From Escherichia coli (GTDB lineage Bacteria; Pseudomonadota; Gammaproteobacteria; Enterobacterales; Enterobacteriaceae): a stretch of 64,000 bases of DNA. The stretch is from the NCBI RefSeq assembly GCF_029227855.1, contig NZ_CP074356.1, one strand, 5' to 3'. The notes under the pieces were generated by a model. The model searched no databases and was not told the origin of the DNA. It saw nothing but the letters and a program-made list of their open reading frames with translations. Shown here piece by piece: positions 887 through 61,678 of the stretch. Each line of letters starts with the position of its first letter. The first letter of the stretch is position 1. The translations under genes and the position numbers were made by a program.

Positions 887-1059
887 AAAGTTCTTTTGTG
901 TTGCATTGCTGGCGTAAATGTCAGCAATGCAGCATTTCCTCACGATTCTCCTTTGACGATCGCACTTTTTGCTCGTTATGATGGCGTCGCTAGCCTCAGT
1001 AAATCCTTACTCCGGCGGTGCGCAACCCGTGCGCGTGAACCACTATCTGAATGCTCATC

Positions 1060-33617: not shown

Positions 33618-34326
33618 TTATAAATAAATATCCTCCGGCATAGCCGGAGGTTTTTCAAATGCGCCTATAAGGCTCTCTTACCAGCCGCGCCCTAACAGGC
33701 GCACACGATCTGACATTTGCATCCAACTTCGTTACTTACGGCCCGTAAACGGGCTGCCCGGATAGGGAATCGATAACTGCTCTCCCATTTTATCCTCTTC
33801 AAGCTGGTGCTTTATGTAATCCTGTATCTTCGCCGTGTTCTTACCCACCGTATCGACGTAATACCCTCTGCACCAGAACTCCCTGTTCCTGTATTTGAAT
33901 TTCAAATCACCAAACTGCTCGTAAAGCATCAGACTGCTTTTCCCTTTCAGATATCCCATAAAGCCTGATACGCTCATTTTGGGCGGGATCTCCACAAGCA
34001 TATGGATATGATCTGCACAGCATTCAGCTTCCAGAATCCGTACACTTTTCCACTCACACAGCTTTCTCAAAATACAGCCTATTGCTCTACGCTTCTCTCT
34101 GTAGAACACCTGTCTTCGGTATTTTGGCGCAAATACTATGTGATATTTACAGTTCCATCGGGTGTGCGCTAAGCTCTTTTCGTTCCCCATTGGGACCCCC
34201 TTTTGATTTCTTGTTTGACACTTGCAGTTGCCAGACCGCAAGGTGTTTTAACAAATCAAAAGGGGTTTTAATAACTGGCTCAAAGCTGAAAGCTTTCCGG
34301 AACCCCCAGCCTAGCTGGGGGTTTTC
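33618..34326 (-). mobile_element. IS200 insertion sequence (IS200/IS605 family); boundaries approximate
   Basis: Contains a Y1 HUH transposase gene; perfect hairpin cccccagc-cta-gctggggg at 34303-34321; 13-bp inverted repeat ccccttttgattt/aaatcaaaagggg (34197-34265) over the tnpA start; IS200 has no terminal inverted repeats, so ends were set by the expected ~0.7 kb size. Confidence 0.6.
33732..34190 (-). CDS. tnpA: IS200 transposase TnpA (Y1 HUH transposase, 152 aa)
   Basis: MGNEKSLAHTRWNCKYHIVFAPKYRR...HIHMLVEIPP (HUH motif); ORF track extends upstream to 34241 via an alternative start; start coordinate uncertain by about 1 nt. Confidence 0.85.
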   Translation of the reverse strand: MGNEKSLAHTRWNCKYHIVFAPKYRRQVFYREKRRAIGCILRKLCEWKSVRILEAECCADHIHMLVEIPPKMSVSGFMGYLKGKSSLMLYEQFGDLKFKYRNREFWCRGYYVDTVGKNTAKIQDYIKHQLEEDKMGEQLSIPYPGSPFTGRK

Positions 34327-39784: not shown

Positions 39785-42280
39785 TTGCAGGAGCTGCCTA
39801 TGTTGAGAATGACCCCACTTGCATCAGCAATCGTAGCGTTATTGCTCGGCATTGAAGCTTATGCAGCTGAAGAAACCTTTGATACCCATTTTATGATAGG
39901 TGGAATGAAAGACCAGCAGGTTGCAAATATTCGTCTTGATGATAATCAACCCTTGCCGGGGCAGTATGACATCGATATTTATGTCAATAAGCAATGGCGC
40001 GGGAAATATGAGATTATTGTTAAAGACAACCCGCAAGAAACATGTATATCAAGGGAAATTATCAAGCGGTTAGGCATTAATACCGATAACTTTGCCAGCG
40101 GTAAGCAATGTTTAACATTTGAGCAACTTGTTCAGGGTGGGAGCTATACCTGGGATATCGGGGTTTTTCGTCTCGATTTCAGTGTACCGCAGGCGTGGGT
40201 GGAAGAACTGGAAAGTGGCTATCTTCCACCGGAAAACTGGGAGCGGGGTATTAATGCGTTTTATACCTCTTATTATGTGAGTCAGTATTACAGCGACTAT
40301 AAAGCGTCGGGTAATAGCAAGAGTACATATGTACGTTTTAACAGCGGGTTAAACTTACTGGGGTGGCAACTGCATTCTGATGCCAGTTTCAGTAAAACAA
40401 ATAACAATCCAGGGGTGTGGAAAAGCAATACCCTGTATCTGGAACGTGGATTTGCCCAACTTCTCGGCACGCTTCGCGTGGGTGATATGTACACATCAAG
40501 CGATATTTTTGATTCTGTTCGCTTCAGCGGTGTGCGGTTGTTTCGTGATATGCAGATGTTGCCTAACTCGAAACAGAATTTTACTCCACGGGTGCAGGGG
40601 ATTGCTCAGAGTAACGCGCTGGTAACTATTGAACAGAACGGTTTTGTGGTTTATCAGAAAGAGGTTCCTCCTGGCCCGTTTGCGATTACAGATTTGCAGT
40701 TGGCCGGTGGTGGAGCAGATCTTGATGTCAGCGTGAAAGAGGCGGACGGTTCGGTAACCACCTATCTGGTGCCTTATGCAGCGGTGCCGAATATGCTGCA
40801 ACCTGGCGTGTCGAAATATGATTTTGCGGCGGGTCGTAGCCATATTGAAGGGGCGAGCAAACAAAGTGATTTTGTCCAGGCGGGTTATCAGTATGGTTTT
40901 AATAACTTATTGACGCTGTATGGCGGATCGATGGTCGCGAATAATTATTACGCGTTCACTTTGGGGACTAGCTGGAATACACGCATTGGTGCCATTTCCG
41001 TCGATGCCACGAAGTCGCATAGTAAACAAGACAACGGCGATGTGTTTGACGGGCAAAGTTATCAAATTGCCTACAACAAATTTGTGAGCCAAACGTCGAC
41101 GCGTTTTGGTCTGGCGGCCTGGCGTTATTCGTCGCGTGATTACCGGACATTTAACGATCACGTTTGGGCAAACAATAAAGATAATTATCGCCGTGATGAA
41201 AACGATATCTATGACATTGCCGATTATTACCAGAACGATTTTGGCCGTAAAAATAGCTTTTCTGCCAATATGAGCCAGTCATTGCCAGAAGGCTGGGGTT
41301 CTGTGTCCTTAAGTACGTTATGGCGAGATTACTGGGGGCGTAGCGGCAGCAGTAAGGATTATCAGTTGAGTTATTCCAACAACCTGCGACGGATAAGCTA
41401 TACCCTCGCGGCAAGCCAGGCTTATGACGAGAATCATCATGAAGAGAAACGTTTTAATATTTTTATATCGATTTCCTTTGATTGGGGTGATGACGTTACG
41501 ACGCCTCGTCGGCAAATATATATGTCTAACTCAACGACGTTTGATGATCAGGGTTTTGCCTCAAATAATACGGGATTATCGGGAACCGTTGGAAACCGGG
41601 ATCAATTTAACTATGGGGTCAACCTGAGTCATCAGCATCAGGGAAATGAAACAACAGCTGGAGCGAATTTAACCTGGAACGCGCCGGTGGCAACGGTGAA
41701 TGGCAGTTATAGTCAGTCGAGTACTTATCGACAGGCTGGAGCCAGTGTTTCAGGGGGCATTGTCGCCTGGTCGGGTGGCGTTAATCTGGCGAACCGTCTT
41801 TCCGAAACGTTTGCAGTGATGAATGCGCCAGGAATTAAAGATGCTTATGTCAATGGGCAAAAATATCGCACAACAAACCGTAATGGAGTGGTGGTATACG
41901 ACGGAATGACACCTTATCGGGAAAATCACCTGATGCTGGATGTGTCGCAAAGCGATAGCGAAGCAGAATTGCGCGGTAACCGGAAAATTGCCGCACCTTA
42001 TCGCGGCGCGGTTGTACTGGTTAATTTTGATACCGATCAGCGCAAGCCCTGGTTTATAAAAGCGTTAAGAACGGATGGGCAACCATTAACGTTTGGTTAT
42101 GAAGTCAATGATATCCATGGTCATAATATTGGCGTTGTCGGCCAGGGAAGCCAGTTATTTATTCGCACCAATGAAGTTCCGCCATCGGTTAATGTAGCAA
42201 TTGATAAGCAACAAGGACTTTCATGCACAATCACCTTCGGTAAAGAGATTGATGAAAGTAGAAATTATATTTGCCAGTAA
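39785..42280 (+). CDS. yehB: Fimbrial outer membrane usher
   Basis: 831-aa ORF (start may be the internal MLRMTPLASAIVALLLG); operon position. Confidence 0.85.
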   Translation: MQELPMLRMTPLASAIVALLLGIEAYAAEETFDTHFMIGGMKDQQVANIRLDDNQPLPGQYDIDIYVNKQWRGKYEIIVKDNPQETCISREIIKRLGINTDNFASGKQCLTFEQLVQGGSYTWDIGVFRLDFSVPQAWVEELESGYLPPENWERGINAFYTSYYVSQYYSDYKASGNSKSTYVRFNSGLNLLGWQLHSDASFSKTNNNPGVWKSNTLYLERGFAQLLGTLRVGDMYTSSDIFDSVRFSGVRLFRDMQMLPNSKQNFTPRVQGIAQSNALVTIEQNGFVVYQKEVPPGPFAITDLQLAGGGADLDVSVKEADGSVTTYLVPYAAVPNMLQPGVSKYDFAAGRSHIEGASKQSDFVQAGYQYGFNNLLTLYGGSMVANNYYAFTLGTSWNTRIGAISVDATKSHSKQDNGDVFDGQSYQIAYNKFVSQTSTRFGLAAWRYSSRDYRTFNDHVWANNKDNYRRDENDIYDIADYYQNDFGRKNSFSANMSQSLPEGWGSVSLSTLWRDYWGRSGSSKDYQLSYSNNLRRISYTLAASQAYDENHHEEKRFNIFISISFDWGDDVTTPRRQIYMSNSTTFDDQGFASNNTGLSGTVGNRDQFNYGVNLSHQHQGNETTAGANLTWNAPVATVNGSYSQSSTYRQAGASVSGGIVAWSGGVNLANRLSETFAVMNAPGIKDAYVNGQKYRTTNRNGVVVYDGMTPYRENHLMLDVSQSDSEAELRGNRKIAAPYRGAVVLVNFDTDQRKPWFIKALRTDGQPLTFGYEVNDIHGHNIGVVGQGSQLFIRTNEVPPSVNVAIDKQQGLSCTITFGKEIDESRNYICQ

Positions 42281-43385: not shown

Positions 43386-43413
43386 CCCCCTCTCTTCGAG
43401 GGGGCTTTTTTTT
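43386..43413 (+). terminator. yehA intrinsic terminator (ccccctc-tcttcg-agggggc then T8)
   Basis: Hairpin and T-run read directly. Confidence 0.65.
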
Positions 43414-43750
43414 AGCGATGATAAAAAATCTCACCGTCGTAGGCTTTAATGATTTTACCGTCGGTGTCGCTGATCAACACGTACGCGCCACCCATATAGG
43501 TCCAGTGTGTCCCGGCATCAGGCGCGGGCAGGTTACGTAACTGCCACTGCTTAATGTTGTACTCATCGGTGCGGTACATCTCTGGGACGGTATCGCCTGG
43601 TTTGAAATGCTTAAAGTCAGCAATGAAACTGCTTAACTCATACTTAGAAATTCCCGAGGTATTGGTCGAACCCGCGGTGGCTGGTGCGGCCCAGGCGGCA
43701 CTGGTAACCAGCAAAAGCACACCCAGCAACATCTTATTTTTAATGGTCAT
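43412..43750 (-). CDS. rcnB: Periplasmic nickel/cobalt homeostasis protein RcnB
   Basis: ORF 43412-43930; start MTIKNKMLLGVLLLVTSAAWA gives 112 aa. Confidence 0.85.
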   Translation of the reverse strand: MTIKNKMLLGVLLLVTSAAWAAPATAGSTNTSGISKYELSSFIADFKHFKPGDTVPEMYRTDEYNIKQWQLRNLPAPDAGTHWTYMGGAYVLISDTDGKIIKAYDGEIFYHR

Positions 43751-43968
43751 AAACTCTCCACTTTGGGGATCTGTAATATCAGTCGCATATCTTTCCTGCC
43801 ATACAATATAACTGACAAGCGATATTTTGTTAGTGATCCCATGATTTCGTAAAAAGTGTAAATGAAAGGATGCCCTAAAAGCATCCTTAGCGAGCAGAGA
43901 GTCAGCGGAAATAGCTGATTTAAGAATCATCCTGGGCTGAAGATAACATGCAAGCCTAAAGGATTGAG

Positions 43969-44793
43969 TTATCGCATTATGCCCATGAAGCCATGTACGC
44001 CCATATACACACCAACTAAGCCAATCAACAGACTGGAAAAATAGGGAGCGCGTTTAGCGAGAGTGTTAAATCCGCTCCAGCGTTTTGCGACCTGCTGAAC
44101 GCTGATTGCTGCGCCAACGCCTACGGTGACAAGCGTTAACGCCAGGCCGAGGCTGAAACTGACGACCAGTGTTGCGCCCAGTGTCAGGGCTTTCAACTGA
44201 ATGCAAATCAACAGCACGGTAATTGCTGCCGGGCAGGGGATAAGGCCACCGGTTAAGCCAAATAGCAAAATTTGCCAGTTGGTGACCTCTCTACCATCAA
44301 AGCGTCGTTTAATGTCATTGGCATGGGCTCGTGCATGGGCATCCTGATACTCGCCATGTTCGTGATGGTGATGATGTCCATGGTCGTGGTGATCTTCGTG
44401 ATCGTGGTGATGATGCTCATGATCATGCTCGTGCATATTCTCCAGCCAGTTGCGTTCGCCGCGCCAGGTACGCCAGAACATCCAGAACGCGGTGCTAATA
44501 ATGATCACTGCGGAAATCAACTGGAGCCACGGTTCTGCTGATTGAGCAGTAAAGCGTTTGCTGATCACCATCCCGCCAAAGGCAATTAACCAGACCACTG
44601 CGGTATGCGAAATAGTTGCTGCCAGTCCAAGCATCACCGCCTGTTTAATGGTGCCTTTGATGGCGATGATAAACGCCGCCATCATCGTTTTTGAGTGCCC
44701 CGGTTCCAGGCCATGAAGCGCACCAAGTAAGATGGCGCTGGGGATGAAGAACCAGGCGTTTCCTTGCTGAAGAAGTGTTGTAAATTCGGTCAT
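43969..44793 (-). CDS. rcnA: Nickel/cobalt efflux protein RcnA
   Basis: 274 aa; histidine-rich loop HEHDHEHHHHDHEDHHDHGHHHHHEHGEY. Confidence 0.9.
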   Translation of the reverse strand: MTEFTTLLQQGNAWFFIPSAILLGALHGLEPGHSKTMMAAFIIAIKGTIKQAVMLGLAATISHTAVVWLIAFGGMVISKRFTAQSAEPWLQLISAVIIISTAFWMFWRTWRGERNWLENMHEHDHEHHHHDHEDHHDHGHHHHHEHGEYQDAHARAHANDIKRRFDGREVTNWQILLFGLTGGLIPCPAAITVLLICIQLKALTLGATLVVSFSLGLALTLVTVGVGAAISVQQVAKRWSGFNTLAKRAPYFSSLLIGLVGVYMGVHGFMGIMR

Positions 44794-44830
44794 GATAATA
44801 ATTCTTAGTATTAATTCGGCAATCTGATTC

Positions 44831-44864
44831 TACTCCCCCCCAGTACCTGATACTACCCCCCAGT
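44831..44864. promoter_or_regulatory. Two RcnR operator sites in the rcnA-rcnR divergent region
   Basis: tactccccccagta (44831-44844) and tactaccccccagta (44850-44864), the TACT-G6-N-AGTA type motif on the opposite strand. Confidence 0.75.
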
Positions 44865-44913
44865 AGATTAATAGTGCTATGATTTTTCATATTCTTGTTA
44901 ACCAGGTGTTGCC

Positions 44914-45186
44914 ATGTCTCATACAATCCGTGATAAACAGAAACTGAAAGCGCGTGCCAGTAAGATTCAGGGCCAGGTCGTGGCGCTCAAGAAAATGCTC
45001 GACGAACCGCATGAATGCGCTGCAGTATTACAACAGATTGCTGCTATCCGTGGCGCGGTAAACGGTCTGATGCGGGAAGTGATTAAAGGCCATCTGACGG
45101 AACACATCGTTCACCAGGGGGATGAGCTAAAACGTGAAGAAGATCTGGATGTCGTTCTGAAGGTGCTGGATTCTTATATCAAATAA
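44914..45186 (+). CDS. rcnR: Ni/Co-responsive transcriptional repressor RcnR
   Basis: 90 aa; divergent from rcnA. Confidence 0.9.
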
Positions 45187-45279
45187 TTTCACAACGTTAT
45201 TGTAATACCGCCGTTTTTCCCCGTTTACAACGCGTGCGCTGGACATTACCATCCTCCTCTGCGATTTATTATCGCAACC

Positions 45280-45408
45280 AAACGACTCGGGGTGCCCTTC
45301 TTTGTGAAGGCTGAGAAATACCCGTATCACCTGATCTGGATAATGCCAGCGTAGGGAAGTCACGGACCACCAGGTCATTGCTTCTTCACGTTATGGCAGG
45401 AGCAAACT
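45280..45408 (+). ncRNA. TPP riboswitch (THI element) in the thiM leader
   Basis: aaccaaacgactcggggtgccc...ggctgagaaatacccgtatcacctgatctggataatgccagcgtagggaa carries the conserved CUGAGA THI-box core, directly upstream of thiM. Confidence 0.85.
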
Positions 45409-61556: not shown

Positions 61557-61644
61557 CAAAAAATAAGCCCGTGTAAGGGAGATTACACAGGCTAAGGAGG
61601 TGGTTCCTGGTACAGCTAGCATTTTATGGGTTATGTTTTTCAGC
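61557..61644 (-). ncRNA. cyaR: CyaR (RyeE) Hfq-dependent sRNA
   Basis: Reverse complement reads GCTGAAAAACATAACCCATAAAATGCTAGCTGTACCAGGAACCACCTCCTTAGCCTGTGTAATCTCCCTTACACGGGCTTATTTTTT, which I recognise as CyaR including terminator hairpin and U-tail; directly downstream of yegQ. Confidence 0.85.
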
Positions 61645-61678
61645 GAAACAGATGATAACCTTAATAAATGCAGCTGTA

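Follow-up and report, generated by a model that had tools for sequence, protein, structure and literature searches.

Two 15-bp sites located between the divergent rcnA and rcnR genes very probably constitute a tandem RcnR operator that is common to the rcnA(B) and rcnR promoters and subjects both to metal-responsive repression. They lie in a 64,000-nt stretch of Escherichia coli chromosomal DNA (here, the window). We base this assignment on the sequence match, identity with the K-12 locus, position relative to transcription start sites and conservation across species, and we take binding, stoichiometry and the metal response from the literature. The operator in the window is already known and nothing within the window is new; the initial annotation had called it expected biology, and it is indeed an ordinary, established site. 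The sole mildly new item, a shortened form of one site in O111 strains, lies outside the window.

The flanking genes are well defined. On the minus strand, a 274-aa open reading frame (43969-44793) encodes RcnA, a Ni/Co efflux protein with a His-rich loop, as annotated in RefSeq and as identified by the NCBIfam nickel/cobalt efflux family NF007454 (561 bits) and the Pfam family NicO (PF03824). Downstream of it on the same strand, rcnB (yohN; 43412-43750) encodes a periplasmic accessory protein of 112 aa (PF11776) at the position of K-12 b2107. On the plus strand, a 90-aa open reading frame (44914-45186; PF02583) encodes RcnR, the Ni(II)/Co(II)-responsive repressor of the CsoR/RcnR family; it scores 197 bits on the RcnR equivalog model NF011613, for which the cutoff is 138. 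Its translation contains His3, Cys35, His60 and His64, the H-C-H-H metal-ligand fingerprint that separates RcnR from CsoR and FrmR (PMC11672702). A 1351-bp query over the locus (43900-45250) matched 5369 of 5426 complete E. coli genomes, with RefSeq naming the two genes rcnA and rcnR. Across all 120 bp, the intergenic region shows 100% identity with that of K-12 MG1655, with the window running opposite to K-12 numbering (window position p corresponds to NC_000913.3 position 2230710 - p). In one genome (NZ_CP091925.1, 1664290-1665664), the rcnA-rcnR locus measures 1375 bp against 1351 bp (24 bp more, 95.9% identity), possibly because the His-rich loop of RcnA differs in length.

Both sites fall in the 120-bp gap (44794-44913) between the two genes. 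Site 1, proximal to rcnA (44831-44845, minus strand), reads TACTCCCCCCCAGTA on the plus strand, that is, TACT-C7-AGTA, and TACT-GGGGGG-G-AGTA on the minus strand, and is identical in K-12. Site 2, proximal to rcnR (44851-44865, minus strand), reads TACTACCCCCCAGTA, that is, TACT-A-C6-AGTA, on the plus strand and TACT-GGGGGG-T-AGTA on the minus strand. A 5-bp spacer (44846-44850, CCTGA on the plus strand, with no strand of its own) separates the sites, which belong to one repeat family (D2) with 93% identity and a start-to-start distance of 20 bp. The initial annotation had placed two G/C-tract palindromes here, and both are present, with two one-base slips in their description: site 1 was given a C6 tract, the actual tract being C7, and the feature was ended at 44864 when its true end is 44865; the sequence that it gave for site 2 agrees with ours.

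The published RcnR recognition motif, as quoted in later papers, is TACT-G6-N-AGTA, and both sites match it exactly; the C7 tract of site 1 still fits, since on the opposite strand it is G6 followed by N = G. A minus-strand search for TACTGGGGGGNAGTA that permitted up to two mismatches returned exactly sites 1 and 2 in the 64-kb window, and zero matches to the motif were found at zero mismatches in 100 dinucleotide-preserving shuffles. A look-alike at 41330 (TACTGGGGGCGTA) has no AGTA arm and was dismissed as a chance occurrence. With tracts of 7 and 6 bases and TACT/AGTA arms 7 bp apart in each, the two sites are type-1 operators as defined in PMC3902906. Identification of the pair as the RcnR operator is therefore upheld by the exact motif match combined with the intergenic identity to K-12 MG1655, and comparison with the experimentally defined operator gave an identical motif. 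Barring the one-base miscount, the first-stage reader had recognised a known operator from sequence alone. We also observed that the tandem operator is enclosed by a larger, imperfect dyad with 16-nt arms (44819-44834 and 44862-44877) that are 75% complementary.

To relate the sites to the promoters, we used the start sites of Kim et al. 2012 (PMC3415461, supplementary file 2, NC_000913.2), which were mapped to the window through their printed upstream sequences and stem from a genome-wide survey in which few reads supported each (11, 12 and 25), under non-inducing conditions without added metal. The major rcnA start site (25 reads; 2183912 (+) in NC_000913.2) maps to 44820 on the minus strand and leaves a 5′ UTR of 27 nt. 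A minor rcnA start site (12 reads; 2183891 (+)) maps inside site 1, at 44841 on the minus strand, with a 5′ UTR of 48 nt. The rcnR start site (11 reads; 2183841 (-); upstream sequence CAGTACCTGATACTACCCCCCAGTAGATTAATAGTGCTATGATTTTTCATA) maps to 44891 on the plus strand, with a 5′ UTR of 23 nt. PrcnA carries a -10 hexamer TAGAAT (44827-44832, minus strand) at -12 to -7 of the major start, overlapping the final 2 bases of site 1, and PrcnR carries an extended -10, TGcTATGAT (44875-44883, plus strand), whose TATGAT lies at -13 to -8.

Judged by these published start sites, the two sites overlap core promoter elements of both repressed genes. Relative to the major start of PrcnA, site 1 spans -25 to -11, with its G7 tract in the -35/-10 spacer, and site 2 spans -45 to -31, the -35 region; relative to PrcnR, site 2 spans -40 to -26 and site 1 spans -60 to -46. 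No recognisable -35 element was found for PrcnR, where the C-tract of site 2 occupies the expected position, and the -35 assignments are weak consensus matches from a relaxed promoter scan. That scan recovered the TAGAAT of PrcnA; at PrcnR, the lack of a -35 caused it to pass over the extended -10. It was also from consensus matching that two further candidates arose, TTGCCG-16-TATTAT on the minus strand (44822-44795) and TTAACC-18-TACAAT on the plus strand (44898-44927); both were rejected, as the -10 of each abuts or enters coding sequence and conflicts with the published start sites. The initial placement of the sites in a divergent promoter region is borne out by the 120-bp gap and the gene models. 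Transcription from PrcnA and PrcnR starts 71 bp apart and proceeds outward on either side of the operator, a geometry that fits a single shared operator repressing both genes. Because both sites cover core elements of PrcnA, the layout would also fit tighter repression of rcnA than of rcnR.

In the known mechanism, which very probably applies here, metal-free RcnR would place one tetramer on each TACT-G6-N-AGTA site, the sites being about two helical turns (20 bp) apart, and would read the TACT/AGTA inverted repeats together with the unusual shape of the uninterrupted G/C tract. Site 1 would fill the PrcnA spacer and touch its -10 TAGAAT, and site 2 would occupy the -35 positions of both PrcnA and PrcnR, such that bound RcnR could exclude RNA polymerase from both promoters, more completely at PrcnA. 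Binding of Ni(II) or Co(II), through ligands that include His3, Cys35, His60 and His64, would then lower the DNA affinity of RcnR, and this drop would lead to transcription of rcnA-rcnB and of rcnR.

Within E. coli, the rcnA-rcnR intergenic region varies less than the DNA around it: 5024 of 5368 matching records are at least 99% identical there, against 942 of 5369 for the 1351-bp query. A more diverged copy is found on plasmid p21AR0133A beside pco genes, where RcnR is 92% and the intergenic region about 79% identical. There, both 15-mers are letter-perfect, and the changes fall in the spacer (AAATA) and the flanks. These data bear on the reading that the palindromes are functionless features of chance or base composition, to which we assign a negligible probability: the short length of the palindromes speaks for it and nothing else does, whereas the zero exact matches in the shuffles count against it, and the perfect retention of the 15-mers in the diverged plasmid and cross-genus copies, with the spacer drifting, refutes it. 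In the p21AR0133A copy (L002:1385-2895, beside pcoS), rcnR is intact with both sites, and rcnA is present as a pseudogene and a fragment. Plasmids of Enterobacter, Klebsiella, Citrobacter and Salmonella, 411 in all, carry copies of RcnR with 90-95% identity.

We next consider the tandem RcnR operator across species. A total of 100,044 species genomes were scanned for both sites at a distance of 2-12 bp, with the G6-N form fixed; being seeded by the motif, the scan measures its association with rcnR/rcnA and not the share of rcnR loci that carry it. It returned 77 loci, from Enterobacterales, Vibrio, Shewanella and Chromobacterium. In every locus with flanking sequence, the tandem sites adjoin an rcnR homologue (58-100% identical), and they lie between rcnR and a divergent rcnA in all of these loci bar three from Shewanella. 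Apart from N, the sites themselves were the search pattern, and the informative readouts are consequently N, the spacer, the flanks and the polarity. Polarity is constant, with the G6-T site facing rcnR in 77 of 77 loci and the G7 site facing rcnA in 76 of 77. The spacer measures 5 bp in 61 loci and 6 bp in 16, out of the 2-12 bp permitted, and is free in sequence. Distances are 31-41 nt between site 1 and the rcnA start codon and 44-98 nt between site 2 and rcnR. Both 15-mers, their polarity, a spacer length of 5-6 bp and the distance from rcnA are thus constrained in this survey, whereas the spacer sequence and the distance from rcnR are free. A Ralstonia rcnA-rcnR pair that was found by protein (RcnR 62% identical) contains a single TACTCCCCCCTAGTA between its divergent genes.

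Beyond the search pattern, conservation of the flanks is highest at two places. One is GAATC, immediately adjacent to site 1, where it completes TAGAAT; the other is TAgCA, a block towards rcnR that reads as the TGcTA of the extended -10 on the opposite strand. Both give independent support to the promoter assignment. Across species the flanks read aTTC-site 2...site 1-GAAT, so that most species have a TAGAAT-like -10 hexamer bordering each outer half-site; in E. coli, the outer hexamer on the rcnR side is TAGATT.

The species loci also bear on whether another CsoR-family paralogue, such as the formaldehyde sensor FrmR, is the main protein bound at these sites, or whether the sites serve cross-regulation, which we regard as highly improbable. 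FrmR is the closest paralogue (the RcnR of the window scores 76 bits on the FrmR model), and G/C-tract palindromes, such as ATACTCCCCTATAGTAT in locus L008, are likewise found upstream in FrmR-type loci. Those sites, however, have a 4-base tract and different arms, whereas the window sites are the exact RcnR motif; moreover, the tandem motif accompanies rcnR/rcnA in all 77 species loci, and the literature assigns the sites to RcnR.

Some genera carry a third type-1 site on the rcnR side, 6 bp past site 2, a position at which E. coli has none. In Enterobacter, Lelliottia and Klebsiella (L018, L019, L036, L042, L044, L047, L058, L061, L063 and L084-L087), this site reads TACTCCCCC(T/G)GAGTA, with the tract on the opposite strand, and in Kosakonia and an unclassified Enterobacteriaceae MAG (L037, L046, L048, L052 and L079), a third site reads AACTGGGGGGGAGTT. 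An uncultured Shewanella (L011:631-1137), as well as L033 and L070, has the tandem sites and rcnR without rcnA. The divergent gene of L011 encodes a 116-aa membrane protein with zero Pfam matches, and RcnR may control a different target in these rcnA-less Shewanella.

Within E. coli itself, site 1 has a shorter form, TACT-C6-AGTA (window 44835-44841 equivalent; seen at L003, L010, L088, L089 and L094, for example), in 133 of 5426 complete genomes, and a C8 form was found in 0 of the 5426. The C6 form is concentrated in O111: it is shared by O111:H8, O111:NM and O111:H2 assemblies from several laboratories and by the reference O111:H- strain 11128 (L096:13780-13898), where the intergenic region is 119 bp. 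This agreement between laboratories and with the reference leads us to reject assembly error as the explanation for the O111 lineage, in which C6 is a real, inherited variant. Some other C6 records may not be real, given that in E. coli O103 RM8385 (L090; window 44835 and 44856 equivalents) both tracts are one base short (C6 and C5), which looks like under-calling of homopolymers. Isolated C6 matches in unrelated lineages (for example, one O157:H7 and the laboratory strain DTU-1) may likewise be assembly errors.

Length variation of this kind could suggest that the C7 and C6 homopolymers act as a slipped-strand switch for phase variation by altering promoter spacing, and the C6 form of site 1 in 133 of 5426 genomes, with the tract within the PrcnA -35/-10 spacer, points in that direction. 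We nevertheless consider such a switch very unlikely. A contingency tract would be expected to vary in length in both directions, within strains and among close relatives, and here C6 was seen and C8 never; C6 looks like a fixed marker of the O111 lineage rather than an on/off switch. Seven bases is, in addition, short for an efficient contingency tract. The 77 species loci carry no information on this point, as tract-length variants were unobservable with a search pattern fixed at G6-N.

As part of the RcnR operator, the C6 form brings the half-sites one base closer (6 instead of 7 bp apart) and removes a base from the PrcnA -35/-10 spacer. If this weakens RcnR binding or alters promoter strength in O111, the lineage would have a different set-point for nickel and cobalt efflux. 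Taken with the third sites in other genera, the O111 form might hint that the copy number and geometry of the operator are tuned between lineages; both proposals, drawn from sequence comparison, are tentative and rather doubtful.

Other features of the window were noted in passing. The best match to the 19-bp Fur-box consensus GATAATGATAATCATTATC scores 14/19 at 44788-44812, a score reached by 7 of 353 background windows of 181 nt. This stretch is AT-rich, overlaps the rcnA 5′ UTR and start codon, and lies beside the operator, not within it. The title of Koch et al. 2007 suggests an iron link for RcnRA, and a literature search on Fur control of rcnA yielded no usable site data and one citation of that paper. 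A TPP riboswitch (RF00059, 71 bits; 45278-45374, plus strand) lies between rcnR and thiM, as expected for a thiMD leader. Further Rfam matches, all above the gathering score, are a Peptidase-S11 RNA (975-1055, plus strand), the OrzO-P antitoxin RNA (21431-21506, minus strand), the STnc490 sRNA (34200-34323, minus strand) and the CyaR sRNA (61561-61646, minus strand).

Finally, the primary work on the RcnR operator is reportedly that of Iwig & Chivers 2009 and Blaha et al. 2011. In the literature, the operator comprises two type-1 sites in tandem; RcnR binds with 1:1 stoichiometry and contacts the TACT/AGTA repeats through their minor groove, and the DNA owes its A-form character to the unbroken G/C tract (PMC3902906). 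It is likewise described as two recognition motifs and is in use as part of cobalt- and nickel-inducible expression systems and biosensors (PMC7105576). For Salmonella RcnR, 2 tetramers bind per rcnAPro DNA, and metal weakens this binding at least 90-fold (PMC5709419). The operator of E. coli K-12 is the same DNA as that of the window, with 120 identical intergenic base pairs and no difference. Salmonella enterica rcnAPro resembles the window in having tandem type-1 sites between divergent rcnR and rcnA; in the Salmonella diarizonae locus (L032), both 15-mers are as in the window, whereas the spacer is TTACA and RcnR and RcnA are 94% and 74% identical, respectively.

More distant relatives share the general principle and differ in its execution. 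CsoR-type systems, such as those of Streptomyces lividans or M. tuberculosis, have in common with the window system the protein fold family, G/C tracts flanked by a GTA/TAC dyad and DNA of A-form character, but in their type-2 sites a pair of short G/C tracts is interrupted by 2-4 bases, the repeats lie about 11 bp apart, and each site takes up two tetramers (PMC3902906); the window sites are type 1, with a single unbroken tract and one tetramer per site. FrmR/DmeR-like operators (L006, L008 and L009) resemble those of the window in placing a single G/C tract in an AT-rich inverted repeat upstream of their targets. They differ in having a shorter tract (4-6 bases), in their arms (ATAGTATA... 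and ATACT...TATAGTAT), and in having other effectors and the targets frmA and dmeF. The DmeR-like and FrmR loci, which were found by protein, have distinct but related G/C-tract palindromes, in agreement with the published type-1 class, of which the rcnA-rcnR site is a textbook CsoR/RcnR example.
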